This document shows, in pieces, positions 13,158 to 44,714 of a stretch of DNA of 64,000 nucleotides (position 1 is the stretch's first letter; each line of letters starts with the position of its first letter). Origin of the DNA: Minisyncoccota bacterium (GTDB lineage Bacteria > Patescibacteriota > Minisyncoccia > Phycocordibacterales > UBA1550). Under the pieces are notes generated by a model that was not told the origin of the DNA, ran no database searches, and was given only the letters and a program-made list of their open reading frames with translations. The stretch covers positions 325 to 64,324 of the forward strand of contig JALNYL010000007.1 of assembly GCA_023229865.1 (NCBI GenBank). Direction: 5' to 3'. Position numbers and translations under genes: made by a program.

Positions 13158-13165
13158 GCTATGAG

Positions 13166-19046: not shown

Positions 19047-19051
19047 AAAGC

Positions 19052-19076
19052 AAAAACACCCTTCCGGGTGTTTTTT
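19052..19076. terminator. Bidirectional hairpin
   Basis: AAAAACACCCTTCCGGGTGTTTTTT. Confidence 0.6.
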
Positions 19077-20597: not shown

Positions 20598-21140
20598 TTA
20601 GCGATGCTTGTTGTCGATATGATGAATCGTGTCGACGGTCAACTTGCCACCATCCAAACAAAGAAGCGCAACGTTGTTGAAAGGGAACACGAACTCAGGA
20701 ACTTGTTTTTTGTTTACGTATTCCCATATCGCCCAAAACTTTTCATCAACACCTTTTGCGACGGTGATGTGAAAATGTTTGCGTGACTCATGTGCTTTCC
20801 ATGAGGTTTCAGGAATTTGTTTGCGAATAGCATTACGCAGCCCTTCGACCGCGCGCTCTGTTTCTCGCGGCAGACTTACATCGAGGAAGATAGTGTCAGT
20901 CTCGAAGTGTCCAAAACCGTGGACAACAAAGGGGTGCGGGTGATGCGCTCGCGCAAATTTTTCAAGTTCTATTTTTGTCAGCATTAAGTCGGCTTTTTCA
21001 AACGGAGACTTAAGGGTGACGTGTGTGGGGAAAAATTCTGTGTTCACACTGAGGCTGAAGCGTTTCGCTATGTCTTGAACGAGTGCGTAATGATACCTTT
21101 TGACTGTTCCTTCTGGTAAATGAACTATGGAATAGCGCAT
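20598..21140 (-). CDS. 2H phosphoesterase superfamily protein (LigT / 2'-5' RNA ligase-like), copy 1
   Basis: Two H-x-T/S-x motifs: PTHVTLK and HFHITVA. AAGGAGG RBS. Confidence 0.6.
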   Translation of the reverse strand: MRYSIVHLPEGTVKRYHYALVQDIAKRFSLSVNTEFFPTHVTLKSPFEKADLMLTKIELEKFARAHHPHPFVVHGFGHFETDTIFLDVSLPRETERAVEGLRNAIRKQIPETSWKAHESRKHFHITVAKGVDEKFWAIWEYVNKKQVPEFVFPFNNVALLCLDGGKLTVDTIHHIDNKHR

Positions 21141-21250: not shown

Positions 21251-21796
21251 CTACAAAGGAGTTGCGTATTGGCTATCGACAACCCACGCGTCGTTTTCTT
21301 TGCGAAGTAATACGATGTTGTCGAGTGAACGATGGAACGCGGGAGTCTCTTTTTGTTTGAGATATTCCCAGACCTTGTCGAACTTCGGCTCGATATCTTT
21401 TTTCGCGAGCGTGATGTGAAGATGCATGATCGGCTCATGGCTACCCCAAGTGAGGAAGGGGATTGCCTTGAGTTTTTTGATCAGCCGGTCATGCATATAT
21501 TCGGCTTCGCGCGAGTGAACCACGTCGAGCGTGATGACGCGTCGTCCCAAGTGCCCAAACCCACAAATGGTGTACCCTGGGGCCACAGATGTTTGTGTGG
21601 TTTCTTGGAGTGCTTGTCGAACAGCAGGAATCTCCTCGTCGTCAGCCTCGAAAGGTGCCTTGAGGGTGATGTGTGTGGGGAAGTACCCGCTGCTCATCTT
21701 GAGGTCAAACTTTTCCGCGAGCTCACGCACGAGCCCTTCGTGATATTTTGCAACAGGGGCTGCAAGCAGGTGGGCAATGAAATAACGATTACGCAT
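21251..21796 (-). CDS. 2H phosphoesterase superfamily protein, copy 2 (tandem paralog)
   Basis: PTHITLK and HLHITLA. Similar promoter and terminator to copy 1. Confidence 0.6.
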   Translation of the reverse strand: MRNRYFIAHLLAAPVAKYHEGLVRELAEKFDLKMSSGYFPTHITLKAPFEADDEEIPAVRQALQETTQTSVAPGYTICGFGHLGRRVITLDVVHSREAEYMHDRLIKKLKAIPFLTWGSHEPIMHLHITLAKKDIEPKFDKVWEYLKQKETPAFHRSLDNIVLLRKENDAWVVDSQYATPL

Positions 21797-21879
21797 GATA
21801 TTTTCCTCTCTGTATGTACAAAAGCTACTCACAATCTATGCTGATGAGTAGCTTTTGTCAAACGGTATAAAGTCATCGG

Positions 21880-27671: not shown

Positions 27672-27839
27672 TGTATTTGGGTGAGATGCGGTCACGAGTT
27701 ACTAAGTCTGCTTAGGTGATTACACCTTGCGCGGACTAAGTACTCTCGACCCCGAGTCCAAGACACAAATCTGCTGATTCGTCGGCGTCTGAAATGCTTA
27801 CGCATTTCTCTGCCTCCGTCCTTCGAATCTCACCCTGCA
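27672..27839 (+). repeat. tRNA-3'-end-mimic element, family B (Ser partner), containing the 64-nt imperfect palindrome at 27690-27753
   Basis: Palindrome GGTCACGAGTTACTAAGTCTGCTTAGGTGATTACACCTTGCGCGGACTAAGTACTCTCGACCCC. The 3' end CTTCGAATCTCACCCTGCA mirrors the tRNA-Ser 3' end. Flanking inverted repeat GGGTGAGAT/ATCTCACCC. Confidence 0.5.
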
Positions 27840-27850
27840 TATAAACGCCA

Positions 27851-27881
27851 AAGCCCGATACCTATTAAAGGTATCGGGCTT
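27851..27881. terminator. Bidirectional hairpin
   Basis: AAGCCCGATACCTATTAAAGGTATCGGGCTT. Confidence 0.55.
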
Positions 27882-27889
27882 AGCCGTTG

Positions 27890-27976
27890 CGGATAGGGTG
27901 AGATTCGAACTCACGGTCCGGTTGCCCAGACTCCTGTTTTCAAGACAGGTGCATTCGACCACTCTGCCACCTATCC
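27890..27976 (-). tRNA. tRNA-Ser (anticodon TGA)
   Basis: Acceptor GGATAGG. Anticodon loop CTTGAAA. Long variable arm. T-loop GTTCGAATC. Confidence 0.85.
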
Positions 27977-28056
27977 AAGGTTGCGTGATCTGCTTGCCTA
28001 TCCTATCAAAAATTGCCAAAAACGCAATGTTTGGGGTGGTGTGCTATCATATCCCT

Positions 28057-28473
28057 ATGCGCTACTTAGGAATCGACTACGGGACGAAGCGAATTGGCCT
28101 TGCTATTTCAGACGAAGGCGGGACAATGGCTTTTCCGTATAGTATTCTAGAAAATGGCAAAGGAAGCTTGGGGGAAATAAAAACCATATGCGGGCACGAG
28201 TCAGTAGAGACTATTGTGATAGGCGAATCTGTTGATTATAAAGGTCAGCCGAATCTTGTAAAAAAGGAAATTGATAAATTTATTGTCACATTGCGCAAAT
28301 TGGTGAACCTGCCGATTTATGAAGAACGAGAATTTCTCACGACACAGCAGGCGCGATTTTATCAAACAAAAAGAAAGCGCGTCGATGACTCCGCCGCCGC
28401 ACTCATTTTGCAAAGCTACCTCGATAGAAAAAACAACAAACCAATAATGGAAACATTACACGACGATAATTAA
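28057..28473 (+). CDS. yqgF: RuvC-like Holliday junction resolvase-like protein YqgF/RuvX
   Basis: MRYLGIDYGTKRIGLAISD N-terminus. The tracked ORF carries an upstream extension over the tRNA. Confidence 0.8.
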   Translation: MRYLGIDYGTKRIGLAISDEGGTMAFPYSILENGKGSLGEIKTICGHESVETIVIGESVDYKGQPNLVKKEIDKFIVTLRKLVNLPIYEEREFLTTQQARFYQTKRKRVDDSAAALILQSYLDRKNNKPIMETLHDDN

Positions 28474-28485
28474 CAACAAACAATT

Positions 28486-28914
28486 ATGATTACCTTCGAC
28501 GAATTCAAAAAAGCAGAAATTAAAATCGGAACAATTCTTTCCGCAGAAAAAGTTCCTGAAGCGGACAAGCTCATCAAGCTCTCGATTGATCTCGGTCCAA
28601 AACCAAAGGCGCCTACGGTAGCCGACGTGGTCGCAGAGATTTTGCCAGAAGGGGAGGGTGCGCCCATTGTCCCCGAAGAAGTAAAAGAAGAAGTCGTAGA
28701 GCAAGACATCCGCCAGATTCTTTCTGGTATTGCCGAGCACTACCCTGACCCGTCAGTGCTCGTTGGCAAGCAGGTGCCTGTCCTCGCAAATCTCCCTACG
28801 CGTACGATTCGCGGTTATGAGAGCCAAGGGATGGTGCTCTATGCTGTTGGCGGAGATTTTCTTACGACAGTCAATCCAGATCGTGTGATCCCCAACGGTA
28901 CCAACGTTCAATAA
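28486..28914 (+). CDS. tRNA-binding (CsaA/Trbp111-like OB-fold) protein with an acidic insert
   Basis: KIGTILSAEKVPEADKLIKLSIDLG. The C-terminal region resembles the MetRS C-terminal domain. Confidence 0.55.
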   Translation: MITFDEFKKAEIKIGTILSAEKVPEADKLIKLSIDLGPKPKAPTVADVVAEILPEGEGAPIVPEEVKEEVVEQDIRQILSGIAEHYPDPSVLVGKQVPVLANLPTRTIRGYESQGMVLYAVGGDFLTTVNPDRVIPNGTNVQ

Positions 28915-28919
28915 TTTTT

Positions 28920-29525
28920 ATGCCGGATTTTCTTCATATCGACATTGCTAGTCTTGTGCAAGCGTTTGGGCTCCTTGGGCTCCTCGTCATCGTCTTTGTT
29001 GAGTCGGGTGTTTTCTTCGGTTTCTTTTTCCCGGGGGACAGTCTTCTTTTTACTGCGGGACTCCTTGCGTCACAGGGTTTTCTCAATATCTGGGCACTCC
29101 TCCTCCTTGTCCCCCTTGCGGCGATTCTCGGAGTTAACTTCGGCTATTGGTTTGGTAAAAAAGTTGGCCAGAAACTTTTTACGCGCGAGGATTCATTCTT
29201 TTTTGATAAGCAGCACATTGAACGTACGCGTGCCTTTTATGCAAAGCACGGCGTGAAGGCGATTGTACTTTCGCGTTTCACCCCCGTGGTGCGCACCTTC
29301 ACACCGATTCTCGCGGGGGTCGGAGAAATGCCCTACAAAATATTTATGAAGTTTAATATTCTTGGCGGACTCCTTTGGACGACGAGTATGCTCGGGCTCG
29401 GTTACTCTCTTGGAACCATTGTTCCTGATATCGATACGTATCTTTTGCCGATTGTTCTCCTTATCATTTTCATCTCTTTTTTGCCGGTAATCCGAGAGGT
29501 TGTTAAAAATAAACAAGGTAAATAA
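28920..29525 (+). CDS. DedA/VTT-family membrane protein
   Basis: GFFFPGDSLLFTAGLLAS motif. Confidence 0.75.
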   Translation: MPDFLHIDIASLVQAFGLLGLLVIVFVESGVFFGFFFPGDSLLFTAGLLASQGFLNIWALLLLVPLAAILGVNFGYWFGKKVGQKLFTREDSFFFDKQHIERTRAFYAKHGVKAIVLSRFTPVVRTFTPILAGVGEMPYKIFMKFNILGGLLWTTSMLGLGYSLGTIVPDIDTYLLPIVLLIIFISFLPVIREVVKNKQGK

Positions 29526-29572
29526 AGGGGAGGGGCTGTGCAAAAAGTGGGTGCGGAGGTATACTAAAGGAA

Positions 29573-30652
29573 ATGGCGCGCAGTAAATTTTACCAATTTT
29601 TTCCTCCACCACAGTTCGTTCAGATGCCTGCGGTGGGTCTCGACATCTCGGATACCTCGATGCGCTTTGTCGAGCTTGTTGAAAAGCGCAAGGGTTTTGT
29701 AATCGGTGCCTTTGGAGAATACGGGATTCCACAAGGGGTTATTGAATCAGGCGAAGTGAAAAAGCCAGAAGAGCTTCGCGCTCTTTTTCTTGAGCTCAAA
29801 AAAGAACACCCAGAGCTCGAATTCGTTTCCGTGTCGCTTCCTGAAGAAAAAGCGTATCTCTTTGAGTTGCGTTTGCCTATTATGAAGTACAGCGAGGTTC
29901 GTGGTTCTATTGAGTTTGGACTTGAAGAGCACGTCCCCCTCACTGCAGCCGAAGCACTTTTTGATTACGAGATTATCAAGGAGGACAATGCAAGTATCTA
30001 TGCGAGTGTTTCTGTCGTCCCCCGCACACTTGTCGAAGGATATCTAGAAGCGTTCAAGGAGACGGGGATTACCCCAATAGCGTTTGAGATGGAGGCGCAC
30101 TCTTTGGCTCGCGCGGTTATTCCGCGAGGGGATACAGAGACATGCATGATCGTTGATTTCGGTAAGACACGTACGGGGATCGCAATAATTTCCGACGGGG
30201 TTGTGCAATTTACATCGACCATCCCTGTCGGGGGAACCTCTCTCACTGAGTCCATTGCAAAAAATCTTAAGATTGCATACGATGAAGCAGAGAAAATAAA
30301 ACGAGAGAAGGGGATTTCGGGGAGTAGTGGAGACGAAAATCTTTTTCTCGCTGTAATGTCGACGATCTCGGTTCTTCGTGAGGAGATCAATAAACATCAG
30401 ACATATTGGCAAGAGCACGCAGATAGTTATGGCAACAGGCGCCTCCCTATCAAAAAAATATACCTTTGCGGAGGGGACTCAGTGCTCGCCGGTTTCCCCG
30501 GATTTCTTGCTACGGGACTTTCTTCTCCTGTTGAGCTTTCCAATACCATGGTGAATGTAAACACTCTTGAAGACTACATCCCAGAAATAAGTTTTAACGA
30601 TTCATTGCGTTATGCAGCAGCGCTCGGTCTTGCGTTGCGCCGTCCTCAATAA
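29573..30652 (+). CDS. pilM: Type IV pilus assembly protein PilM
   Basis: Actin-like ATPase fold. N-terminal VGLDISDTSMRFVEL. Confidence 0.7.
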   Translation: MARSKFYQFFPPPQFVQMPAVGLDISDTSMRFVELVEKRKGFVIGAFGEYGIPQGVIESGEVKKPEELRALFLELKKEHPELEFVSVSLPEEKAYLFELRLPIMKYSEVRGSIEFGLEEHVPLTAAEALFDYEIIKEDNASIYASVSVVPRTLVEGYLEAFKETGITPIAFEMEAHSLARAVIPRGDTETCMIVDFGKTRTGIAIISDGVVQFTSTIPVGGTSLTESIAKNLKIAYDEAEKIKREKGISGSSGDENLFLAVMSTISVLREEINKHQTYWQEHADSYGNRRLPIKKIYLCGGDSVLAGFPGFLATGLSSPVELSNTMVNVNTLEDYIPEISFNDSLRYAAALGLALRRPQ

Positions 30653-30660
30653 TTATCATC

Positions 30661-31224
30661 ATGCTCAATCTCCTCTCTACAGAAGAAAAGAAAAAAGTAT
30701 TGAATGAATATCGCCTTCGTCTTGCGGTTATTGTGACGCTTGCTGTCGGGGTGCTTGTCCTCGCAAGTTTTGAACTCCTCATTCCTTCATATGTGCTTGC
30801 TTCGTTGAAATATAGTAATGCGCAAAAAAATATTGTTGTCTTGGAAGAAAAATACGGAAGCAATGCTAAAGAAAAAGAATTGGCCGAGCAGGTGCGCAAC
30901 ACCAATATGAAGGTTGCGACGCTGACTGACACAACCGCGGATACCCGCCTCCTTTTCTCGCAGATTGTCGCGAACACACTAAAGGTTAAGGGGGACGAAA
31001 TCAAAATAACGGGATTTAGGTATGATGCTTCCTCAGCCCAGGAAAGAATATCTGTTTCGGGGACCGCACGTCATCGTGACAGTTTGGCTGCGTTTGTTGA
31101 TGCTCTCAAAAAAGACACAACATATTCCAGCGTCACCTTTCCGATTTCTAGTTATGTCAAAAGCGAAGATATTAGTTTTTCTGTAATATTGGACCGTAAG
31201 GCGGCAGCCACAAAAAAGAAATAA
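30661..31224 (+). CDS. PilN-like bitopic membrane protein
   Basis: Single TM helix after a short cytoplasmic N-terminus. Position after pilM. Confidence 0.45.
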   Translation: MLNLLSTEEKKKVLNEYRLRLAVIVTLAVGVLVLASFELLIPSYVLASLKYSNAQKNIVVLEEKYGSNAKEKELAEQVRNTNMKVATLTDTTADTRLLFSQIVANTLKVKGDEIKITGFRYDASSAQERISVSGTARHRDSLAAFVDALKKDTTYSSVTFPISSYVKSEDISFSVILDRKAAATKKK

Positions 31225-31225
31225 C

Positions 31226-31762
31226 ATGTTTAAAACAAAACAAAAAACATTAATTCTTTTGGGGATCGCATCGGTCTTTATGCTTGGAAGTATCGGAGGT
31301 TATGCTGCGCTCTTTTTTGCGATCAAAGATAAAACAATAGCAACCACCCCTCTCGTTGAAAAAATAGACGAGCTCTCAAATAGAGAAGCGCGCATCACTG
31401 CTTCTATTGCAACCCTGCGTGCTGAGAATGAAAAAGTAGAAAAACTTTTTGCCTACTTCTTTAAAGAAAATGATATCGTCACGTTTGCAAAAAAGATAGA
31501 GCTCCTGGGGATTGAGTCAGGGGCAGAAGTTACTCTTGATGGACTTGAACAAGCCATTGTCAACAAAACAACGCCCACACTCAGCTTCCGTATTTCTGCG
31601 TTAGGGGGATTTGATAACATTCAGCGACTCATGCTCCTCCTAGAAAATTTCCCCGGCAAACTAGAATGGAAATCAGCAAGCGTCACAAGGAGCAATCAGA
31701 CGCTCCCCGCAGAGTGGCGTTTTGATGCGTCGCTTACGATGCGTAATTTCCTTAATGAATAA
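31226..31762 (+). CDS. PilO-like bitopic membrane protein
   Basis: TM helix plus coiled coil. Operon position. Confidence 0.4.
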   Translation: MFKTKQKTLILLGIASVFMLGSIGGYAALFFAIKDKTIATTPLVEKIDELSNREARITASIATLRAENEKVEKLFAYFFKENDIVTFAKKIELLGIESGAEVTLDGLEQAIVNKTTPTLSFRISALGGFDNIQRLMLLLENFPGKLEWKSASVTRSNQTLPAEWRFDASLTMRNFLNE

Positions 31763-31766
31763 CATT

Positions 31767-32099
31767 ATGTTAAAAAAAGATTGGAAAAAAGAATTAAAAA
31801 AATTAACCTTCTCGCGTGGGAAAGATAGCCTTCGTATGGAGCTAACGCCTTTTCGTGATTGGCGTATCATTGTGGTTACCTTCTTCCTCTCCCTTTTTCT
31901 TTCTGTTGGGTTCAATATCTACATTTCTTCAGAAGCAAACCGCGATGCCTTCTTCTCTGCGGAGGCAAAGCAGACCGTTGGTGTTATAAAATTTAACCAA
32001 GACGCACTCGCTAAAGTTATTAAAGAGATAGATGACAAGGCGACGCGCTATGAAAAAGTGAAGACTGAGCAAATGTTACTGATTGACCCATCCCTTTAG
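31767..32099 (+). CDS. Hypothetical small membrane protein, fourth gene of the pilMNO operon
   Basis: ATG 4 nt after the PilO stop. One TM helix. Confidence 0.3.
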   Translation: MLKKDWKKELKKLTFSRGKDSLRMELTPFRDWRIIVVTFFLSLFLSVGFNIYISSEANRDAFFSAEAKQTVGVIKFNQDALAKVIKEIDDKATRYEKVKTEQMLLIDPSL

Positions 32100-32127
32100 T
32101 ATTGCTAGAGTGCTGAAAGGACAATCT

Positions 32128-32202
32128 GCCCCTGTAGTTAAATGGATATAACTGCGGACTTCTAAGCCGTTATTCGAGGTTCGATTCCTCGCGGGGGCAC
32201 CA
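32128..32202 (+). tRNA. tRNA-Arg (anticodon TCT), CCA encoded
   Basis: GCCCCTGTAGTTAAATGG... Loop CTTCTAA. T-arm CGAGGTTCGATTCCTCG. Acceptor CGGGGGC + ACCA. Confidence 0.8.
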
Positions 32203-32206
32203 AGGC

Positions 32207-32251
32207 AAAACAAAATACTACCCAAGTTTCACTTGGGTAGTATTTTGTTTT
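32207..32251. terminator. Long perfect bidirectional hairpin (about 19-bp stem)
   Basis: AAAACAAAATACTACCCAAGTTTCACTTGGGTAGTATTTTGTTTT. Confidence 0.6.
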
Positions 32252-32269
32252 AGCAAGCAACCTGCGTTG

Positions 32270-32464
32270 CTTGCGTGCCTTGGTGCCCCCGCGTGGAATC
32301 GAACGAGAAGGGGGTCGGGGAAACATCTGTTTTCCCGTGGAGGAAGGATTGGGAAAACCGTGGGTTTCCCAGGAGTGAGATAGCGAAGCGTCCACGCGGC
32401 GGGGTCGAGAGTACTTAGTCCGCGCAAGATGTAATCATCTGAGCAGACTTAGTAACTCGTGACC
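32270..32464 (-). repeat. tRNA-3'-end-mimic element, family B (Arg-TCT partner)
   Basis: The 3' end (window 32281-32305) is the inverted copy of the tRNA-Arg 3' end including CCA. The 5' end is the 64-nt palindrome at 32401-32464. Confidence 0.5.
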
Positions 32465-32570
32465 ACAAGGTACCTCTGCTATCTTCCAATTCGTCGCCAC
32501 TGATTTTTTCGTACCTCAAAAATCAGGCTTCGCGGCGACTCGGTTCGAACCCCTCATCGCCACACAAACA
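32401..32570 (+). repeat. tRNA-3'-end-mimic element (Val partner), sharing the palindrome at 32401-32464 back-to-back with the previous element
   Basis: The 3' end GGTTCGAACCCCTCATCGCCACA matches the tRNA-Val 3' end with one mismatch and one deleted nt. Confidence 0.4.
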
Positions 32571-32609
32571 AAAAGACGAGAACGCAGAAGCGTTCTCGTC
32601 TAATGTTTG

Positions 32610-32682
32610 TGGGCGATGAGGGATTCGAACCCCCGACCTTCGCTGTGTAAAAGCGCTGCTCTACCAACTGAGCTAATCGCCC
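32610..32682 (-). tRNA. tRNA-Val (anticodon TAC)
   Basis: GGGCGATTAGCTCAGTTGGTAGAGC... Loop TTTACAC. T-loop GGTTCGAATCC. Confidence 0.85.
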
Positions 32683-32771
32683 TCTATTTCCTTGGTTCCA
32701 ACACAATATCACGAACCTCATTTATCTTCAAGTCCTTGCGTTTTGGAGCTTGGCACGTTAGGGTAATTGAT

Positions 32772-33047
32772 ATGCAAAAGCGCCTTGAGTCAAAAATTGC
32801 TGGCCGTGTGCAGATGGTTATGTTTCGTGACTTCACGACGCGAAAGGCGCGAGCCCTAGGCCTCGTCGGCACTGTCCGCAACAATCCAGATAGCACCGTT
32901 TCAGTGATTGCAGAAGGAGAAGAAGAGAAACTTCAAGAACTCCTCAGGCTCTTAAAAAAAGGTTCCGTACTTTCGCGTGTCGACGAAGTGACCGAGAAGT
33001 GGTCGGAGTGCTTGGGGGGTTATAAGAATTTTGATATTCTGTATTAG
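32772..33047 (+). CDS. acyP: Acylphosphatase
   Basis: GRVQMVMFRDFT motif. Length 91 aa. The upstream ORF extension lies over the tRNA. Confidence 0.8.
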   Translation: MQKRLESKIAGRVQMVMFRDFTTRKARALGLVGTVRNNPDSTVSVIAEGEEEKLQELLRLLKKGSVLSRVDEVTEKWSECLGGYKNFDILY

Positions 33048-33190
33048 TAGTCGCCCACGCATCCACAGCTACTTTGTTGCAGGTGTACAATTTTTTGTCA
33101 CCATAGCAAAAGTATGGCTCCAGAAAATTATACACCTGCGCCTCGTACCTGTGGCGCCTGAGCAACTACATTTTAGGAGAAAATATTTAC

Positions 33191-33871
33191 ATGTCAGAAC
33201 AAAAAATCAATTGTGTCGCGGTCATCATGGACGGCAATCGCCGCTGGGCCCGCGCACACAACAAACCAACTCTCGAGGGACACAGCGAAGGATACAAAAA
33301 ACTCCAAGATGTTGTCGGCTGGGCTCGTGAAGCAGGGGTCCCGCACATTATCGCATTCGCATTCTCCACAGAAAACTGGCAGCGCAGCGAAGATGAAGTC
33401 GGCTACCTCATGAAGCTCTTCAACTCAGTGCTTGAAAACGAAACAGAAAAAATGATTCGTGAGCGCATCCGCATTCGTTTTGTTGGCGACCGCGACCGCT
33501 TCGCGGAAGATGTGCGCGCAAAAATGGAGAAAATGGAAGAAGCGACTTCGAAAAATTTTGACATCACGCTTCATCTTGCAATGTCGTATGGTGGACGAGC
33601 AGAAATCCTTGCCGTGACAAATACCCTTATTGCAAAAGGGCAACCAGCTACCGAAGAAGATTTTTCAAAAGCGCTTTGGACAAGCGATATGCCCGACCCT
33701 GATATCCTTATTCGTACAGGAGGGGAGCATAGACTCTCGGGTTTCCTCCCGTGGCAGTCGGTGTATAGCGAGCTCTTTTTTGTGGACGCATATTGGCCAG
33801 AGTTTTCAGAAGAGATCTTTACTAATATTCTCAAAGAGTTCAAGGACCGTGAACGTCGCATGGGGAAGTAG
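33191..33871 (+). CDS. uppS: Undecaprenyl diphosphate synthase
   Basis: MDGNRRWA and DPDILIRTGGEHRLSGFLPWQ motifs. Confidence 0.9.
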   Translation: MSEQKINCVAVIMDGNRRWARAHNKPTLEGHSEGYKKLQDVVGWAREAGVPHIIAFAFSTENWQRSEDEVGYLMKLFNSVLENETEKMIRERIRIRFVGDRDRFAEDVRAKMEKMEEATSKNFDITLHLAMSYGGRAEILAVTNTLIAKGQPATEEDFSKALWTSDMPDPDILIRTGGEHRLSGFLPWQSVYSELFFVDAYWPEFSEEIFTNILKEFKDRERRMGK

Positions 33872-33882
33872 CTACTACTAAT

Positions 33883-34635
33883 ATGAACATCCCAATTTTA
33901 TACGAAGATGATGAAGTGCTCGCAATCAATAAACCTGCGGGGCTTGTTGTGCATCCCGATGGCCGCAGCTCAGAGCACACACTCTCTGATTGGCTCATTG
34001 AAAAGTACCCCAACATCCGTGGCGTAGGGGAAACGATCAACCTCACAAACGGGGGTGTGATTGAAAAGTGGGGCATCGTGCATCGCATTGATCGCGACAC
34101 CTCAGGTGTGCTTCTTGTCGCAAAGACACAGGAGTCATTTTTGAATTTGAAATCACAGTTTCAAGGGCGCACTATTAAAAAATCTTACCGCACGATTGCG
34201 CAGGGTTTTTTCAAGGAGAAATCAGGAACAATTAATCTTCCCATCGGTCGCTCAAAGAGCGATTTCCGTAGATGGTCGGCTGAGTATGGCGCTCGTGGCG
34301 AGCTTCGTGAAGCAGTGACGGATTACAAAGTGCTCGGAGAGGGGATGGTGACATTGCCAAAGAAAAAAGAAGTAGTGAGACTCACCTTCCTTGAGATAAA
34401 TCCTCACACGGGTCGCACCCACCAGATCCGCGTCCACCTAAAAGCCGTTGGGCACCCTATTTTGAGTGATGCGCTGTATTCACCAAAGTCGCCCAAGGTG
34501 CTTGGTTTTGAACGTATTGCCCTCCATGCTTTTTCTGTGGTTTTTAAAGGGCTCGATGGGGTGGAGCACAAGGTTGAAGCCCCTCTTCCTGACGATTTTT
34601 CCCGCGCTATTGCAGAACTTGGCCTCGTATGCTAG
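33883..34635 (+). CDS. RluA-family pseudouridine synthase
   Basis: Catalytic HRIDRDTSGVLLVAK. Confidence 0.85.
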   Translation: MNIPILYEDDEVLAINKPAGLVVHPDGRSSEHTLSDWLIEKYPNIRGVGETINLTNGGVIEKWGIVHRIDRDTSGVLLVAKTQESFLNLKSQFQGRTIKKSYRTIAQGFFKEKSGTINLPIGRSKSDFRRWSAEYGARGELREAVTDYKVLGEGMVTLPKKKEVVRLTFLEINPHTGRTHQIRVHLKAVGHPILSDALYSPKSPKVLGFERIALHAFSVVFKGLDGVEHKVEAPLPDDFSRAIAELGLVC

Positions 34636-34673
34636 AGTAGCCCAATATCTTTCAGGGAAAACTAATTAATAAT

Positions 34674-35099
34674 ATGGAAAATACAACGATTCAAATGAGC
34701 CCCGTAGCAGTAGCAAGCCGCAAGGATTTGCCTATTCGCGCTGGCGCAACCGTAAAGGTACACCTCAAGATTGAGGAAAAAGGTAAGGTTCGTATGCAGA
34801 TCTTTGAGGGCCTCGTACTTGCGGTAAAGGGTGGCAAGGGCAATGGTGCTATGTTCACCGTGCGCAAGGTTGCCTCAGGTGTAGGCGTTGAAAAGATTTT
34901 CCCCCTCTACTCACCATCAATCGAAAAGATTGAAATCGTTCGTCAGTCAGACGTTCGCCGTGCAAAGCTCTACTTCGTTCGCGGAAAGGTAGCTCGCGAT
35001 GTAAAGCGCAAGATGCGTCACACAAAGACTGGTGTAACCGTCCCTGTTCAGGAAGGAGAAGTTGCAGAGGAGGTGACTGCAGAGGAAGCGATTGCATAA
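34674..35099 (+). CDS. rplS: 50S ribosomal protein L19 with a C-terminal extension
   Basis: L19 core VKVHLKIEEKGKVRMQIFEGLVLAVKG... Confidence 0.85.
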   Translation: MENTTIQMSPVAVASRKDLPIRAGATVKVHLKIEEKGKVRMQIFEGLVLAVKGGKGNGAMFTVRKVASGVGVEKIFPLYSPSIEKIEIVRQSDVRRAKLYFVRGKVARDVKRKMRHTKTGVTVPVQEGEVAEEVTAEEAIA

Positions 35100-35109
35100 T
35101 TAAATCTCA

Positions 35110-35141
35110 GAAAAGGCGGTGCCGAGCGGCACCGCCTTTTT
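35110..35141 (+). terminator. Intrinsic terminator
   Basis: AAAAGGCGGTGCCGAGCGGCACCGCCTTTTT. Confidence 0.6.
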
Positions 35142-35200
35142 GCTTGAAAAATTTCGTCCTTTGGGGTATAGTGGCAAAACCTCAAGGACAGAAGAAATAT

Positions 35201-35284
35201 GCGCAGGTGGCGAAATTGGTAGACGCACTACCTTGAGGTGGTAGCGCCTTCACGGGCATGGAGGTTCAAGTCCTCTCCTGCGCA
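35201..35284 (+). tRNA. tRNA-Leu (anticodon GAG)
   Basis: Loop TTGAGGT. Long variable arm. Acceptor GCGCAGG/CCTGCGC. Confidence 0.85.
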
Positions 35285-35324
35285 CAAAATTAAAAGCCCC
35301 GACTCATGCGAGTCGGGGCTTTTA

Positions 35325-35485
35325 ATTTTGTGCGCAGGAAGCAAGACGCTGGTGCGTCTTGCGTGAGGACTTGAAAGCCGGAACCATACCGAGTGCAACG
35401 AGGTAGGTGAGGCGGGGTAGCGGATACTTAGTCCGCGGAAGGTGTAATCACCTGAGCAGACTTAGTAATCCGTGACCAAGTCCTC
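35325..35485 (-). repeat. tRNA-3'-end-mimic element, family B (Leu partner)
   Basis: Inverted tRNA-Leu 3' end at 35329-35379 carrying an inserted small hairpin. 64-nt palindrome at 35414-35477. Flanking inverted repeat GAGGACTTG/CAAGTCCTC. Confidence 0.5.
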
Positions 35486-37025: not shown

Positions 37026-37098
37026 GGTGGCTATGGTGTAATGGTTAACACTAGAGTTTGTGGAGCTCTCGATCTGGGTTCGATTCCCAGTAGTCACC
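37026..37098 (+). tRNA. tRNA-His (anticodon GTG) with encoded G-1 and C73 discriminator
   Basis: G-1 precedes GTGGCTA. Loop TTGTGGA. Acceptor TAGTCAC + C. Confidence 0.85.
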
Positions 37099-37196
37099 CA
37101 AAAATGAAAAACTAGACTTCTTGTCCAGTTTTTCTGTTTTTACCACCCTAGATTTGATATACTTATCTCACGATTTAATAGATAATTTTTTATATT

Positions 37197-39618: not shown

Positions 39619-40014
39619 ATGACAAAAGCTACAAAAAATATTGTTATCGGACTCGGTGTCCTCATTGTGTCTCTTGTCGTCATCTTCTCGTCGACGACAA
39701 AGGCGAGCGGTGGTCTCCTCGGGGCAGATGAGTTTATCACGAAGTACCAGAGTGCTCCTGGTGCGGTGCTCCTCGATGTGCGCACGCCGGGAGAGTTTGT
39801 GGCAGGGCACATCGCCACGGCGATAAACGTCGACTATGAAAATCCCAATTTCGTAGAAGAACTCAAAAAACTCGATCCGACAAAAACATATTTCATTTAC
39901 TGTCGTTCTGGCAATAGGTCTTCGAAAGCCCTCGTGCTCATGAAGCAGAATAATTTCCAAATGGTGTACGACTTGCGCGGGGGCGTGAGTGGATCGCCCC
40001 AGCTTTTGAAGTAG
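39619..40014 (+). CDS. Membrane-anchored rhodanese-domain protein
   Basis: N-terminal TM helix. Active-site CRSGNRS. Confidence 0.7.
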   Translation: MTKATKNIVIGLGVLIVSLVVIFSSTTKASGGLLGADEFITKYQSAPGAVLLDVRTPGEFVAGHIATAINVDYENPNFVEELKKLDPTKTYFIYCRSGNRSSKALVLMKQNNFQMVYDLRGGVSGSPQLLK

Positions 40015-40036
40015 GGGGGGGTAGCCAAAAACACCA

Positions 40037-40077
40037 AAACCCCACCGCGCGTTTTATTAACGCGCGGTGGGGTTTTG
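40037..40077 (+). terminator. Intrinsic terminator
   Basis: AAAACCCCACCGCGCGTTTTATTAACGCGCGGTGGGGTTTTGTTTT. Confidence 0.6.
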
Positions 40078-40202
40078 TTTTGAATTGTTGAGATGACCGA
40101 GTTCTATGCTTAATGCAGAAATTTGGTAGCTCGGAATCTTTGGGGGTTGTCCACATTTTCCTTTAGTAAAATTACGATAAAAGTGTTAGGCTTTTGTTAT
40201 CT

Positions 40203-41033
40203 ATGTCTAAAAATGAGACAATAAAATTTTCAGGTTATCATTTGATAATTAAAGGGAAGAAAACCTTTGATTTGTCATGTTTCTCTTTGGTAGAGAGTGA
40301 GCGGACAGAACGCCTTGTTATTTCAAGCGGAGAGCAAAAAGAAACTCTTCAAGTAACTAAACACAAGAAAGTAACACACTCTGAGCGTTTTTTGACGCTG
40401 TATTTTAATTCAGGGGAAAAATATCCATATTCACCGACAGTTATCGACGGTGAACTGCAAGAAACTGATAATCCGAGGAATCCCGAGCAGATCGAACTTG
40501 ATGAACAACTTTTTGTTTTGTTTGATACCGTAACGCAGAGAATGTGGATTTCAAATCAACGAAAGAAAAATTTTATAGTAGAGTGGATAGCCAAAAAAAC
40601 AAAATTTGAAATCTCTGTTAAATCCATCCTTGACGAAGAGACATTTTTGGAAAAAATTAAATCAGTTGAGGAGGTGTCTTTTTGTGTTGTGCCGAATTTA
40701 TTTAATACTTCTGGGCAAAATACATTATCAGGGCATTTAGCCCAGGATATTTATGGGTTTGGTGCAAGCAAGGCACGCATAGAACTCTCATATAAAGATA
40801 TTTCAATTAATGATAAAATAAAGACAAGGATAAGAGAGATGCTTGGTCGTAAATCAGATTTTCAAGATGTTAGTGTTGTGGGTAGAAGTGATGAGGGGTT
40901 AGATACAATTTTTAATTTGGAGGAAGTAATAAGTAGGATTCACGTAGAAGTTGTTGCGGATAATAAATCTAAACTACTTGATCCAGTGGAAGTATTCGAT
41001 TCTTTAATTAGTAATATAAATAAATATGAGTAA
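40203..41033 (+). CDS. Hypothetical protein A of the low-GC island (an alternative TTG start lies at 40194)
   Basis: Long ORF in an AT-rich segment. No recognisable motif. Confidence 0.4.
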   Translation: MSKNETIKFSGYHLIIKGKKTFDLSCFSLVESERTERLVISSGEQKETLQVTKHKKVTHSERFLTLYFNSGEKYPYSPTVIDGELQETDNPRNPEQIELDEQLFVLFDTVTQRMWISNQRKKNFIVEWIAKKTKFEISVKSILDEETFLEKIKSVEEVSFCVVPNLFNTSGQNTLSGHLAQDIYGFGASKARIELSYKDISINDKIKTRIREMLGRKSDFQDVSVVGRSDEGLDTIFNLEEVISRIHVEVVADNKSKLLDPVEVFDSLISNINKYE

Positions 41034-41487
41034 AAAATATTTCACGGCCACTGTGTTGTTCCTAGTATCTCTACTTGTTCAAATTAAATTCTTTTCTAAT
41101 ATTCAATTTAGTCTAAGTACAATAAGCGATATAGTTACGTTTTTGTCTATCTTGTTTGGCTTTTATGTAACTAGTCTTGCGATTTTTGTAACCTCCAAGT
41201 ATGTTTCAAGTCTGTATGAGATCGTGGACCGCAATAATAAGGGGGTTACATTGCTTGATACACTGACGAACAACTACAAATTTGGATTGATCCTCACTCT
41301 CTTGTCATTAATGTATTTTATTGGAGTTCAGTTTTTTATACCTTTACAACAAAGCACACTGTCTCTTGGCGACGGAATATTTTACCCCCTAATAGGATTT
41401 CTTGTTCTAGATTTTGTTTATTGTTTTGCAATGCTTAGTGATTTAATTAAAATTATTATTCAAGAAGGCAAAAGTCGCGCGGTCTAA
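41026..41487 (+). CDS. Hypothetical 4-TM membrane protein B of the island
   Basis: Start overlaps the stop of A (ATGAGTAA). Four hydrophobic helices. Confidence 0.45.
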   Translation: MSKKYFTATVLFLVSLLVQIKFFSNIQFSLSTISDIVTFLSILFGFYVTSLAIFVTSKYVSSLYEIVDRNNKGVTLLDTLTNNYKFGLILTLLSLMYFIGVQFFIPLQQSTLSLGDGIFYPLIGFLVLDFVYCFAMLSDLIKIIIQEGKSRAV

Positions 41488-41522
41488 ATTGTTATAATTA
41501 TTCGTTTGAATAAACAAAGATT

Positions 41523-42128
41523 ATGAATGAAGAAATTTTAGCAAGAACGGAGTCTCTTTATTTAATCAATTCAAACAAGGAAAAGTGCGCTGAATTGATT
41601 AGGGAATCTGACTTATCAGCAGAGGATATGATTGACATATTTATTAGTTTGCATATCGTTCTTGAGGTTGGGCTAAATGCATTTTTTAGAAACTTGTCTT
41701 TGTTGTCTATCAAAAAAGACGTTGACACTTTTGAGATTATAAGAAATGTTGACTCGGTCAATTTTATAGATAAAACAATTATGTTTATTTATAATTCGAA
41801 ATTTGATTTTTTGAGCGAAGAAGATCTGCATAGGGCTACTGCCTATCATAGTATTATTGGCCACTTAAAACATTTTTCAGCGATGCGCAATCGGCTACTC
41901 CATGGACATTCAATAAGCACTATATTTGATGGTGAGAGAAACAGACACTCGGGATTGAAAGAAGATATAAATTTGGAAAATCTTAAAAGACAAATTTTAA
42001 AATTCAGTTTTATTTTTGAGGGAATGAAATTTTATTTAGATAAATTAGATTCGCCTCTTACTGAATCTGGGAAAGAAAGTTTTAAGGCCGAATATTTAAG
42101 TGACGAATTTTTGCCAATATTGAGATAA
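41523..42128 (+). CDS. Hypothetical protein C with an Rx4H HEPN-like motif (candidate RNase)
   Basis: KHFSAMRNRLLHGHS carries an R-x4-H motif in an otherwise alpha-helical protein. Confidence 0.35.
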   Translation: MNEEILARTESLYLINSNKEKCAELIRESDLSAEDMIDIFISLHIVLEVGLNAFFRNLSLLSIKKDVDTFEIIRNVDSVNFIDKTIMFIYNSKFDFLSEEDLHRATAYHSIIGHLKHFSAMRNRLLHGHSISTIFDGERNRHSGLKEDINLENLKRQILKFSFIFEGMKFYLDKLDSPLTESGKESFKAEYLSDEFLPILR

Positions 42129-42301
42129 CTTATCCTTTTGCCCCTTAAATCGGCCATACCTCCACACTTACTTTTTAAAACCTGGTTATGCAATGGTGAT
42201 TCATCTTTCAATCCACCTCATTGACTCTCCTCAAACTTTAATATAGAACTAACGTAGTTGGATTTGGTCTTTTAATCAATTTACAGAAACGGAGGGTTCA
42301 A

Positions 42302-43327
42302 ATGGAAATTACTCTGCAAGACAGATTCCGCGGGGCGCTTGTTGGCGTCCTTGCGGGCGATGCGCTCGGGGCGCCGTATGAGCTGGGGAAGGCGGCAGAC
42401 ATTGACGCTGACTTCGCGAAGCGCGGCGGCCTCACGGCGTTTGGTTACCAAAATCCCTTTTACGGGAAGACGGAAGACATCAAAGAGTTTCCCGCAGGGC
42501 GACCGACGGATGATTCCGATCACACTGCAGCACTCGCGAAAAGCCTCATCGAAAGCAATGGTCTCGACGAAAAAGATTTGTTCTATCGTCTGCGCAGTAT
42601 CGTCGTGAATGGCTGGAGTCCTTTGTGGGGAGGGAAGGCAGTAGGCGCCGGCAGAACGACGCGCAAAATGCTCGCCCCCGAAACCTACGAAGAGTCGTAT
42701 GCGATTCCAAGCAAGGGAGCATTCCCGAGCAACGGAAGTCTCATGCGTTCGGCACCGATGGCACTCTATTTTGCGGCGACACGCCCTACGGGTGGTATCG
42801 ACCGCGATATGGTAGCAAGGATGTCGCGTGTAACACACCGTCATCCGCTCGCGGTGCGGTGCTGCGTTGCGTATGCCTCCATCCTTTACGAACTCCTCCT
42901 GGGGTATCATCGTGACGGTGCGAGTCAGAGAGCGATTCAGCTCGGGTATGACTGGGATCATGAGAGTGGAGTTCTCAATCTTCACCGCGAAGAGATTCCC
43001 TGGCAAGTCAGTCTCGCAGACATGCTTGCTGATCCTACAGTTCACCCGCGTGACCCCTGGGGAAAGCCGGGCATCGGTGATGTACTCCTCACGCTCCATG
43101 TTGCACTCTGGGCGCTCTACACTACTTCGAGTTTCCGCGAGGGGATTACGAAAGTCGTTGCGCTTGGTGGCGACACGGATACGTACGCTGCAGTGGCCGG
43201 GGGACTCCTCGGTGCATACTATGGCGAACAAGGTATCCCGCCCGAATGGAGGAACGTTCTCCTTGGGCGACAAGTGATGGAAAACCTCGCTGATGAATTC
43301 TGTATCTGGGCAAACCAAAGTGCGTAA
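42302..43327 (+). CDS. ADP-ribosylglycohydrolase (DraG/ARH family)
   Basis: GALVGVLAGDALGAPYE and DDSDHT motifs. C-terminal GGDTDTYAAVAGGLLGA. Confidence 0.75.
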   Translation: MEITLQDRFRGALVGVLAGDALGAPYELGKAADIDADFAKRGGLTAFGYQNPFYGKTEDIKEFPAGRPTDDSDHTAALAKSLIESNGLDEKDLFYRLRSIVVNGWSPLWGGKAVGAGRTTRKMLAPETYEESYAIPSKGAFPSNGSLMRSAPMALYFAATRPTGGIDRDMVARMSRVTHRHPLAVRCCVAYASILYELLLGYHRDGASQRAIQLGYDWDHESGVLNLHREEIPWQVSLADMLADPTVHPRDPWGKPGIGDVLLTLHVALWALYTTSSFREGITKVVALGGDTDTYAAVAGGLLGAYYGEQGIPPEWRNVLLGRQVMENLADEFCIWANQSA

Positions 43328-43499
43328 CAAACTGTACTTTTCAAACCGGCGAGCAATCGCCGGTTTTTGTTTTGAGTCCACAATCGAACCCTTGATTTTT
43401 CTACAATTTTGTGTTATAAGCAAATCAGGTAGCTGTTTGTAAAACTCGTCGCCCGACATTTTGTCAGGCGACAAACTATTAAAATAGAAAGGAATAACC

Positions 43500-44714
43500 A
43501 TGCAGGAAACCACACTGACAAAGTCTGGGGTGAACCGCAGGCTCTGGAATGCAATACGAATCCTCATGTCCTCGTTGGGGGAAAATGGTATGTACGCAGG
43601 CTCTGGCCCGCGCTACCGCAACCAATGCTGGACACGCGATGTATCCCTCGCACTTTTCCCCGCGCTCTACTCGATGTGTTCGCGGGGGATGAGTATGCCG
43701 GGGGCACCGACGGACAAGGCTTACCTTTTGGGGGTTCGCGAGAAACATCTCGCGCAACTCATGGAACGCCAAGGCCCGACCGGCGCCATCCCGATTCTTT
43801 ATGCGGACAACTTCGAGCAACTTCTGTTGTCGAAGCTGTCCAAAGCAAAGTGGGACGGCAAAACGCTCGATGTGAATGGTTCGTTTGTGGCCCGTCGTAT
43901 TCTCGACGGCTACTACGCGTCCCAGGGGCGGGGGGCGGAGTTCAGCGATTTCCCCAAGGATCGTGAGTGTGGCCTCTATCGCCTCACTCCGGGTACGACA
44001 GATAGCGAGCTCATGTTCGCGTATGCTGTCTACTCGCAAAAAGAATCCACGGAAATTCATCGCAACCACGCAGACCGCGCGATCAAGCATCTCGAAGATC
44101 GTTACGTTTGGAACGGCCTGCATAATGGCGCCGACTGGCGTGACACGATGGAAGTCTTCTTTCGCGACAAGCCGCTCCTCACCAACAACGCACTGCTCTA
44201 CGCCGTGTACAAGTTGTCGGGTAATGTGGAGAAGGCGGGCGCACTGAAGGCAGAAATCGAACGTGTTCTCTGGAACGGCGAGACCTATCTCGACTATCCT
44301 GAAGCAACGCGCTTCGATCCACTCGGTGGCGCACTCGGTGTTCTTCATGGGCTGATTCCTGAGGAACGCTATGCGTCGGTGCTGGCTGGCTTCAAGTCTG
44401 TCGACACGCCGCAGGGTGTGACGATCGAGTGCAAGCACAACCCGCACCAGTCAGGCGAAGCAGAAGTCATCGAACGTACGGGCGGCATTGTTGTGTGGCC
44501 ATTTGTTGTCGGCTTCACCATTCTTGCGGCTCTCGAAATGGGCGAACATGAATTTGCTCTCGAGCAGTTCAAAAAGTTCCACAACCTCGATGGCTTTGCA
44601 GAATGGTATGACCCCGCAGACGGAAGTAAGTGGGGCGAGCACGAGCAGGGCTGGAGCGCCGCACTCTATGTGCGTGTCGTCGAAGCCCTCACACAGCGTG
44701 GTCTCCTGCAATAA
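43500..44714 (+). CDS. Glycoside hydrolase of the (alpha/alpha)6-barrel type (GDE_C / GH100 / GH63-like)
   Basis: Helical repeats with conserved W/D/E acidic residues. Weak family assignment. Confidence 0.35.
   Translation: MQETTLTKSGVNRRLWNAIRILMSSLGENGMYAGSGPRYRNQCWTRDVSLALFPALYSMCSRGMSMPGAPTDKAYLLGVREKHLAQLMERQGPTGAIPILYADNFEQLLLSKLSKAKWDGKTLDVNGSFVARRILDGYYASQGRGAEFSDFPKDRECGLYRLTPGTTDSELMFAYAVYSQKESTEIHRNHADRAIKHLEDRYVWNGLHNGADWRDTMEVFFRDKPLLTNNALLYAVYKLSGNVEKAGALKAEIERVLWNGETYLDYPEATRFDPLGGALGVLHGLIPEERYASVLAGFKSVDTPQGVTIECKHNPHQSGEAEVIERTGGIVVWPFVVGFTILAALEMGEHEFALEQFKKFHNLDGFAEWYDPADGSKWGEHEQGWSAALYVRVVEALTQRGLLQ

Follow-up and report, generated by a model that had tools for sequence, protein, structure and literature searches.

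The window analysed here, a 64-kb stretch of contig JALNYL010000007.1, is bacterial chromosome of Candidatus Yonathbacteria/Paceibacterota in the candidate phyla radiation (CPR); the closest rplS loci belong to metagenome-assembled genomes of this group. Its housekeeping genes include pilM/N, uppS, rplS, polA, ruvA/B and genes for a pseudouridine synthase and a Mur ligase. The window contains seven tRNA genes, all intact, and ARAGORN and Rfam call no others. In six cases the gene is followed by an inverted copy of the 3' end of the same tRNA, with a terminator-shaped hairpin in between. Behind three of them, the genes for tRNA-Ser(TGA), tRNA-Arg(TCT) and tRNA-Leu(GAG), there is also a 64-nt hairpin repeat, termed hpA, which is the subject of this study together with the composite units that contain it.

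The three hpA copies lie at 27690..27753 on the plus strand, opposite tRNA-Ser, and on the minus strand at 32401..32464 and 35414..35477, in canonical orientation opposite tRNA-Arg-TCT and tRNA-Leu-GAG, respectively. An earlier note on this DNA, made from the sequence alone, had placed three imperfect palindromes at exactly these positions. As it reported, 27690-27753 and 32401-32464 are reverse complements of each other (94% complementarity over 68-nt arms). Identity is 87% between copies 32398-32465 and 35411-35478 and 88% between copies 27690-27754 and 35413-35477. Three hpA copies within 64 kb far exceed chance. The differences between them are largely compensatory, again as noticed before: GAG/CTC is replaced by CGG/CCG, and GATG/CATC by GGTG/CACC. 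The note had proposed a bulged hairpin of about 24 bp with a loop of about 15 nt. The stem is indeed about 23 bp long, in five stacked segments with breaks at a 2x2 internal loop, a 1-nt bulge and a 1x1 mismatch; the loop is much smaller than proposed, with four apical nucleotides (AUUA) atop a 5-bp tip helix. When folded as DNA, both strands are equal (-13.4 to -14.5 kcal/mol, z -3.7 to -5.4). The orientation relative to the adjoining tRNA gene is uniform, with GGTCAC...GACCCC on the opposite strand in all three copies (for the Ser copy, the plus strand), at 136, 199 and 129 nt from the tRNA 3' end.

The hairpin is one part of a larger unit. Its consensus was derived from 23 loci of related genomes and 120 metagenome loci, which are labelled below by L-numbers. 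On the strand opposite the tRNA, the unit consists of AT, hpA, a CC linker, hpB, a YTT linker, T', a bidirectional terminator and the tRNA gene. AT is the reverse complement of the last 19 nt of the tRNA (C56 to C74). The base of hpA is conserved, (G)GTCACGAGTTACTAAGT...TAAGTACTCTCGACC, and its tip is variable; hpB has the form GNC-TC-[stem-loop]-TCC/TGC-GN'C. T' repeats this tRNA segment in sense orientation with varying degeneracy, and a small hairpin with an AGCAG-type loop often lies between its T-stem part and its acceptor part. AT and T' pair to form helix P1, which results in a three-way junction of P1, hpA and hpB.

In the Ser unit, the 5' strand of the closing helix P1 (GGGTGAGAT, 27679..27687, plus strand) pairs with 27827-27835 and is a remnant of a reverse-complement copy of the tRNA-Ser 3' end. 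The hpB region (27754..27820, plus strand) has closing pairing of the GAG...GTC type and two inner hairpins, and on the strand opposite the gene, T' (CGAATCTCACCCT, 27824..27836, plus strand) repeats tRNA-Ser positions 56-68 in sense-like form. Between this unit and its target, the tRNA-Ser(TGA) gene (27889..27976, minus strand; ARAGORN and Rfam), lies a hairpin (27850..27881) that is terminator-like in shape; it has short T runs and was not called by the scan for sigma-70-type promoters and terminators, whose counts were not enriched over shuffles. The target of the second unit, tRNA-Arg(TCT) (32128..32202, plus strand; ARAGORN and Rfam), is followed by the bidirectional terminator hairpin that the unit carries (32206..32250), and by a small hairpin module with an AGCAG loop (GCAAGCAACGCAGGTTGCTTGC, 32252..32273, minus strand), which recurs in related and metagenome loci with covarying stems. 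Then come T' (32276..32304, minus strand), an inverted tRNA-Arg 3' end of 29 nt that is 97% complementary to 32179-32207, and a scaffold (32305..32400, minus strand) orthologous to the Arg element of L008. The scaffold ends in ACGCGGCGGGG, a degenerate distal copy of the tRNA 3' end. Behind tRNA-Leu(GAG), the target of the third unit (35201..35285, plus strand; ARAGORN and Rfam), a perfect 30+30-nt palindrome (35276..35339) comprises the tRNA-Leu acceptor 3' strand, the terminator and an inverted copy (T'b). A small hairpin module (35341..35362, minus strand) separates the T-stem part of T' from its acceptor part; T'a (TTCAAGTCCTC) and hpB follow (35365..35413, minus strand), and beyond hpA the P1 5' strand (GAGGACTTG, 35477..35485, minus strand) is a remnant of a reverse-complement copy of the tRNA-Leu 3' end.

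The fold is supported by 71 non-redundant units, in which 90.5% of cells are paired, compared to 72.5% in shuffles. Changes on both sides of a pair were found in 449 cells as against 155 in shuffles, and none of 500 shuffles reached the observed value; slid controls gave 35-42%. Six different Watson-Crick versions of the hpB closing triplet are found (GCC/GGC, GAC/GTC, GGC/GCC, ACC/GGT, GTC/GAC and AGC/GCT). Covariation in P1 is partly trivial, because both of its strands derive from the same tRNA. The earlier note had suggested a covariance model and a check for compensatory substitutions; the model was built from 71 seeds, mainly unrelated metagenomic copies with two window units included, and the substitutions support the fold across these units. 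Within the window its only strong matches are 35366-35484 (minus strand), 27683-27831 (plus strand) and 32357-32471 (minus strand), with scores of 91.5, 76.9 and 73.3 bits and E-values from 1e-25 to 2e-19; the next match scores 18.6 bits. In the Yonathbacteria loci the model has 19 matches, and in three outgroup loci it has none.

The 18.6-bit match is all that the model gives at the 32401-32464 palindrome in the orientation of the neighbouring tRNA-Val gene, which speaks against the former suggestion that one palindrome serves the tRNA-Val side as well as tRNA-Arg. The Val gene (32609-32682, minus strand) has a separate unit (32468..32608, plus strand) with its own terminator at 32574-32601, T' GGTTCGAACCCCTCATCGCCACA and a different hpB variant, TTCGTCGCC...GGCGACTCGG, which is also found in L013, L017 and L064. 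It is without a hairpin in canonical orientation and adjoins the hairpin of the Arg unit, and the two units appear to be nested back to back.

Comparison of occupied and empty sites shows how the units are placed. We denote the tRNA segment C56-C74 by X, its proximal copy by X0 and its distal copy by X1. On the tRNA strand an occupied site then reads tRNA(1-55), X0, new terminator, reverse complement of T', hpB, hpA, X1 and old terminator. X1 equals X0 at 16/16 positions in five genome loci. An exact repeat of at least 19 nt is present in 19 metagenome units and one of 18 nt in a further unit, and it always starts at C56. The distal copy abuts the orthologous original terminator. In L008, L046 and L120 the CCA is kept in the distal copy and absent from the proximal one, and the reverse was not seen in these comparisons. 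Hence the distal copy is the ancestral tRNA end. In L021 the tRNA-Arg and tRNA-Val genes converge on one common terminator, which represents the empty site. L008 has a block of 186 nt after the tRNA-Arg body; beyond it come a distal ...GGGGGCACCA and the same terminator as in L021, and in L019 an equivalent block is placed at tRNA-Val. The tRNA-Ser site is occupied in L021 and in the window and empty in L001, L007, L019 and L022. Tandem or nested units occur in L011, L013, L017, L042, L062 and L145, and remnants of older hairpins are found just upstream of newer ones.

The tRNA-His gene of the window (37027-37099) has no unit; orthologous tRNA-His genes of L001, L005 and L008 have one. This is a further presence/absence difference between genomes.

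Two classes of units can be distinguished by the boundary of the insertion. Class 1 has the boundary T55|C56 and exists in two forms, one with a full 19-nt distal copy and a split or degenerate T', the other with a distal copy of only 6-9 nt and a contiguous, nearly perfect T'. In the minority class 2 the boundary is 71|72; the repeated sequence is only CAC, CGC or GAC plus a few trailer bases, and the arms of the palindrome consist of trailer sequence. The Arg-TCT unit of the window belongs to class 2. It is orthologous to the Arg unit of L008 over the whole scaffold and differs by 59 additional nucleotides (32405-32463), which separate GGGG from the CAC of the distal copy. Presence in some units and absence from others, at one fixed position within T', is also seen for the AGCAG-loop hairpin. 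The units are thus mosaics of small hairpin modules, as bacterial interspersed mosaic elements (BIMEs) and BOX elements are. A candidate target motif of these hairpins, read opposite the tRNA, is YG|CCCC.

Other scaffold families of the window follow the same logic: family A at tRNA-Lys and tRNA-Arg-GCG, and the further variant at tRNA-Val. Family A scaffolds lie behind tRNA-Lys(TTT) (13163-13340, minus strand) and behind tRNA-Arg(GCG) (18950-19057, plus strand). They have a 97-nt stretch that is 93% identical up to a common GGTTCGATTCC, from which each continues into the acceptor strand of its own tRNA (16/16). The Lys unit contains an internal tandem duplication (13224-13262 and 13300-13338) and a fragment of a B2-type hairpin, GGTCACAAATCACTAAGT, at 13278-13295; its scaffold resembles an inverted tRNA-Lys anticodon arm.

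The direct and inverted copies could also have arisen by replication template switching at terminator palindromes, in the form of a fold-back direct-inverted-direct triplication that unrelated hairpin repeats invaded later. Subtraction of hpA and hpB does leave the order direct copy, terminator, inverted copy, short loop, direct copy. The sequence of the inverted copy follows that of the adjacent tRNA, and in family A the inverted similarity reaches 48 nt into the tRNA-Lys anticodon arm. We nevertheless consider this origin very unlikely: the same 5' boundary, T55|C56, is used across dozens of tRNAs and tmRNA, the terminator on the tRNA side is new and the old one is displaced, and the scaffolds are conserved across isotypes.

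The distribution of hpA was studied by a pattern scan of metagenomes with its conserved base, and all counts refer to the matches listed. More than 120 metagenome stretches carry the pattern. Of 129 occurrences, 91 have a convergent tRNA gene within 500 nt (19 isotypes, median distance 119 nt), and six adjoin the 3' end of a tmRNA gene. In 14 the context is cut by the contig end, and the other 18 mostly contain tRNA 3' fragments followed by cargo. Altogether 97 of the 115 assessable copies sit at a tRNA or tmRNA 3' end, which bears out the proposed tie of the repeat family to tRNA genes. No copies were found in IMG/VR viral contigs, INPHARED phages or PLSDB plasmids.

At six loci (L038, L103, L106, L117, L141 and L126) the unit terminator is followed only by the acceptor part of a tRNA 3' end; a T-loop-like motif in degenerate form (GGTTAGAAC, AGTTCGAA) comes next, and then unrelated sequence. 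ARAGORN and Rfam make no call there. These may be decayed tRNA fragments at cassette boundaries.

Some units bound genes. In L043, a locus on the 31.9-kb contig JACCDR012200727.1, five reverse-complement tRNA-Tyr 3' fragments at 6100-9612 (GTGCGCCGAG..., with a degenerate T-arm) punctuate one-gene cassettes. The cassettes encode one Zeta toxin and several open reading frames (ORFs) without a family match. Two of the cassette boundaries are complete units, and the cassette ends carry the short inverted repeats CTGGAGTTGGTTCGACACC and GGTGTCGAACTCCAG. In L090 (74-3084) two identical units bracket 3 kb of small ORFs, and in L146 (1720-2650) tRNA-His and its unit enclose an ORF of 273 aa, which has GGCACCCA repeats on its flanks. 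The 273-aa ORF has an HExxH-like motif and no Pfam match. By eye, one 267-aa ORF of L090 looks DUF3800-like. No integrase gene was seen in any of these three cargo-bearing examples.

Taken together, the empty and occupied sites, the tandem and nested copies and the gene cassettes between units point to mobile DNA. We think it rather probable that hpA forms the long imperfect hairpin in an insertion element that is modular and non-coding and occupies tRNA and tmRNA 3' ends of Paceibacterota/Yonathbacteria. The best reading of the whole is a hairpin-based, site-specific, non-autonomous insertion element similar to repetitive extragenic palindromic (REP) sequences and to MITEs (miniature inverted-repeat transposable elements). 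The earlier note had likened the repeat to REP, MITE and palindrome-associated transposable elements (PATEs), and this suggestion is the one we favour, given the empty and occupied sites, the 19/19-nt direct repeats, the tandem and nested copies and the insertion of hpA relative to L008.

We propose that movement of the element takes place on DNA. Either a single strand able to form a hairpin or a folded duplex that mimics the target would be joined at T55|C56, or at 71|72 in the minority class, by a trans-acting enzyme encoded elsewhere than nearby. This could be a tyrosine recombinase performing one-strand exchange between the folded hairpin site and the tRNA gene, or an HUH Y1 enzyme of the kind of TnpA or the REP-associated tyrosine transposase (RAYT), acting at the hairpin feet. 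Either enzyme would have to recognise a feature common to all tRNAs and tmRNA, namely the T-loop. The tRNA would stay functional, since the element supplies its own 3' end and terminator. As modules, the hairpins behave as if each were insertable separately, and in some genomes the units also bound small gene cassettes.

In the XerCD reaction of CTXphi and the IntI reaction of attC, a folded hairpin site exchanges a single strand with a duplex target. Such an exchange predicts the order direct copy, loop, inverted copy, cargo, direct copy, and this is the order seen in the units. Tentatively, the units could be attC-like sites of an integron-like system that is anchored at the tRNA/tmRNA T-loop (T55|C56) and captures small gene cassettes by means of a structure-guided host recombinase; we regard this as possible at most.

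The existence of cargo-bearing versions is also what would be expected if the units were scars of larger integrated elements, such as prophages or genomic islets, that had been inserted by tyrosine integrases through recombination of phage and bacterial attachment sites (attP x attB) and then mostly deleted, with the hairpins as arms of the attachment (att) sites. One integrase normally serves one att sequence, and here the same hpA base occurs at 19 isotypes. The internal inverted copy is foreign to double-stranded att recombination, no integrase gene was seen in any cargo-bearing example, and the covarying hairpins argue for a selected fold, not for decaying arms. Such scars are an unlikely explanation of the units.

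Several observations weigh against a mobile DNA element. Pfam found no recombinase, transposase, reverse transcriptase, TnpB or IscB among the 57 window ORFs scanned, and no recombinase recurs near the metagenomic copies (1112 neighbouring ORFs were clustered). No circular or excised form and no within-population polymorphism was observed; a single near-identical contig, of 976 nt, came from an exact-protein look-up of rplS. Units at different tRNAs of the same genome have hpA in common, including its tip, and differ in hpB and the terminator. This combination would call for module exchange or gene conversion. At the positions that differ, T' follows its own tRNA rather than the distal copy (112 versus 37), and the sequence borne by the element alone cannot explain the spread to 19 isotypes. 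The near-full occupancy of tRNA genes in a reduced genome could mean that the units are useful rather than selfish. Furthermore, when RNA energies are used, folding favours the tRNA-sense strand in 94 of 96 cores, an asymmetry that stems partly from invariant purine-rich loops common to all sequences; in the variable parts the tRNA-sense strand is better for hpB in 79 of 96 and for the tips in 54 versus 27. The conserved internal loops of this strand are purine-rich (GGA/GA and GA/GU), as would suit a structured RNA.

The last points belong to the view that the unit encodes a small RNA, a mimic of the tRNA acceptor and T-arm that might act as a tRNA-specific decoy, sponge or cofactor. Such an RNA would arise by terminator read-through and consist of an acceptor-like 5' strand, an optional hairpin, a T-like helix, the hpB/hpA junction and the genuine 3' end of the tRNA; its processing by RNase P and the 3'-end machinery would be conceivable. 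The conserved and covarying three-way junction, the better folding of the sense strand under RNA parameters, the tandem G·A-type loops and the presence of a unit at nearly all window tRNAs are consistent with this. The sense strand of the L021 Ser unit adopts a cloverleaf-like fold with a 9-bp acceptor-like helix. On the other hand, a terminator-shaped hairpin parts the tRNA from the unit in both directions, and it is a good intrinsic terminator in several units. AT directly abuts the old terminator of the neighbouring gene, so that a promoter on the opposite strand would have no space. Real RNAs show a strong asymmetry of G·U over A·C wobbles; on the opposite strand the aligned pairs contain 59 G·U and 42 A·C, nearly symmetric. 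The distal copy of about half the units measures only 6-9 nt, which makes an acceptor helix impossible, and the presence of units among close relatives is patchy.

The search of Rfam 15 with the window and the odd loci, at gathering and at permissive thresholds (E up to 5), found no family for the unit, in agreement with the earlier statement that the repeat could not be assigned to a known RNA family. Its matches were the tRNAs and chance microRNA-like hairpins on terminator palindromes. The units contain no tRNA-like domain by ARAGORN and Rfam, which call only the seven bona fide tRNAs; the 5' strand of the unit's T-stem is replaced by a strand that pairs with the T-loop. Finally, the tRNA match follows the gene: CCA is absent from it wherever the gene has none, which excludes pairing to the mature tRNA as its cause. 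The proposal that the repeat is the 5' module of a tRNA-mimic RNA is not supported, in view of the missing promoter space, the nearly symmetric wobbles and a match to the gene rather than to a CCA-tailed tRNA. The DNA reading of the units is more likely and the tRNA-mimic reading weaker; we consider the small RNA doubtful.

A conserved scaffold flanked by 16-19 nt that match the adjoining tRNA gene on both strands could also suggest a guide RNA gene for an RNA-directed nuclease or recombinase, similar to the omega-RNA of TnpB/IscB or the bridge RNA of IS110, with the tRNA-matching segments as guides. No TnpB, IscB or IS110 ORF was found in the window or near the copies, and Rfam gives no match to omega-RNA or HEARO. 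The wobble count is symmetric, and the distal copy is the ancestral tRNA end and not a designed guide. There is hardly any probability left for this explanation.

Three other readings were rejected. A primer-binding site, which would be an 18-nt complement of the mature tRNA 3' end, does not agree with matches that follow genes without CCA. Split or permuted tRNAs are not compatible with seven window tRNAs that are all intact. As to introns and retro-elements, a published study of tRNA introns in Patescibacteria deals with group I introns, located at position 35/36, and reports that the phylum has none of group II; the element ends in ...GAC, not in omega-G, and its start is not GUGYG.

The search for a mobilising enzyme was extended to the neighbouring genes. 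No RAYT (Y1 HUH), TnpA or TnpB was found among the annotated ORFs of the window, which covers 64 kb of the genome, and an NCBIfam search of ten family-less window ORFs returned nothing useful. Clusters recurring in the neighbourhood of the metagenomic copies include housekeeping genes, namely those for a TypA/LepA-like GTPase, MiaA, the CCA-adding enzyme, ClpB and YraN. YraN/UPF0102, a predicted endonuclease, is located beside unit-bearing clusters of Gly, Pro and Arg tRNA genes in L029, L055, L067, L078, L104, L127 and L132; its recurrence probably reflects conserved synteny and not a functional connection. Further ORFs, about 220-240 aa long, with an N-terminal helix-turn-helix and a LAGLIDADG-like motif (e.g. 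IAGLALYWAEGYK) are found directly upstream of tRNA genes on five unrelated metagenome contigs (L032 3543-4220, L055 2060-2743, L084 209-859, L104 5239-5901 and L127 1021-1746). Their products may be homing endonucleases of the free-standing type with a link to tRNA genes.

The segment 27640-27678, which precedes the Ser unit upstream, contains GGGGTGAAATCTTACAGGAGCG, which resembles the start of another scaffold family (...CTTACAGGAGCAGTACAGG...) that occurs in L002, L011, L062 and L145. The segment is probably a remnant of an older unit.

Several further features of the window were noted. Two genes for LigT-like 2',5' RNA ligases/2H phosphoesterases lie in tandem near tRNA-Arg(GCG) (20598-21140 and 21251-21832), and their flanking intergenic segments are duplicated (repeats D11, D15 and D18). 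The GC content falls sharply to 0.34 at 40001-42000, compared to about 0.48 elsewhere in the window. Three consecutive ORFs in this low-GC region and large ORFs at 42281-44714 have no Pfam or NCBIfam match, and the region may be a foreign islet. The ORF 7028-8896 (622 aa) contains four tandem repeats of about 300-312 nt at 7190-8142; its domains are immunoglobulin-like/DUF11 and phosphatase N-terminal-like, and the repeats correspond to repeated domains of what is probably a surface protein.

If the units are mobile, they constitute a site-specific family of unusual design, in which a tiny structured DNA inserts into the loop that is most conserved in all tRNAs and in tmRNA, and mends its target with a spare 3' end and terminator. 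They would provide streamlined CPR genomes with a new route to gain and shuffle accessory genes, as units can stack and carry cassettes. They would further imply an enzyme able to recognise T-loop DNA or folded hairpins, and thereby to a possible tool for programmable or universal-site integration. Should the integron-like system be true, toxins and defence-type genes would be captured and stacked behind tRNA genes of genome-reduced CPR bacteria. If the units are expressed instead, they would be tRNA-specific acceptor-stem mimics of a new and large class. In both cases, most tRNA genes of these genomes carry non-ancestral 3' ends and terminators, which affects tRNA annotation, the inference of encoded CCA, and the use of tRNA flanks as markers of islands.

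We found no published description of this arrangement in full-text searches of the literature, and the unit lacks at least one defining feature of each known system with which we compared it. Small size, structure, multiple copies, lack of autonomy and presence/absence polymorphism are common to the units and to MITE, BOX and Correia elements. MITEs end in inverted repeats, and the ends of the unit (trailer/terminator at one side and ...CTCGTGAC at the other) are not inverted repeats. The duplication at the unit is a 19-nt functional tRNA segment, C56-C74, not the short duplication of a staggered cut.

The likeness to REP/BIME with RAYT and to the PATEs of the IS200/IS605 family extends to short imperfect palindromes with compensatory changes, modular mosaics, extragenic positions near terminators, similar copies within the same genome and, presumably, mobilisation in trans. 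REP sequences and their paired form, REPIN, have an imperfect palindrome of 20-40 nt with a GTAG-like 5' tetranucleotide and occupy many dispersed extragenic sites. In contrast, hpA is 45-70 nt or longer, starts with GGTCAC and is bound to tRNA and tmRNA genes. IS200/IS605 PATEs have subterminal hairpins at both ends and no target duplication. Unlike PATEs and omega-RNA systems, the units have a target-derived repeat, and no TnpA or TnpB is found among the window ORFs or near the copies.

Casposons integrate at the 3' ends of tRNA genes with target duplications of 14-15 bp; they are large and carry Cas1 and a polymerase. The units resemble them in the targeted tRNA 3' end and in a long target duplication. 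The duplication of casposons results from staggered integration, whereas the proximal copy of the unit differs from the distal one in CCA status.

Integrative elements are reportedly targeted to the 3' ends of tRNA and tmRNA genes by tyrosine integrases, with a sublocation at the T-loop, as Williams is said to have described in 2002. The units have the same target, the segment from the T-loop to the 3' end, and likewise form tandem arrays with cargo; as at the att sites of these integrases, direct repeats flank the insert and the copy brought by the element restores the gene. They differ in being gene-less and only 150-300 bp long, with one scaffold family for 19 isotypes, and in always having an internal inverted att copy and two conserved hairpins. 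No integrase was found for the units, and the cargo ORFs examined encode a Zeta toxin and several family-less proteins.

With the attP(+) site of CTXphi used by XerCD and the attC site of integrons used by IntI, the units share the order of the product and imperfect palindromes with conserved bulges and mismatches. attC sites are defined by R''/R' boxes (RYYYAAC/GTTRRRY) in an R''-L''...L'-R' order, by extrahelical bases and by arrays beside intI/attI; the two ends of hpA are GGTCACGAG/CTCGACC without GTTRRRY, and no intI was seen. The anchor of the units is the T-loop of a tRNA rather than dif or attI, with an enzyme and a single-strand intermediate that we infer. As in integrons, cassette-like arrays grow at one anchor site, which in L043 is formed by the tRNA-Tyr fragments.

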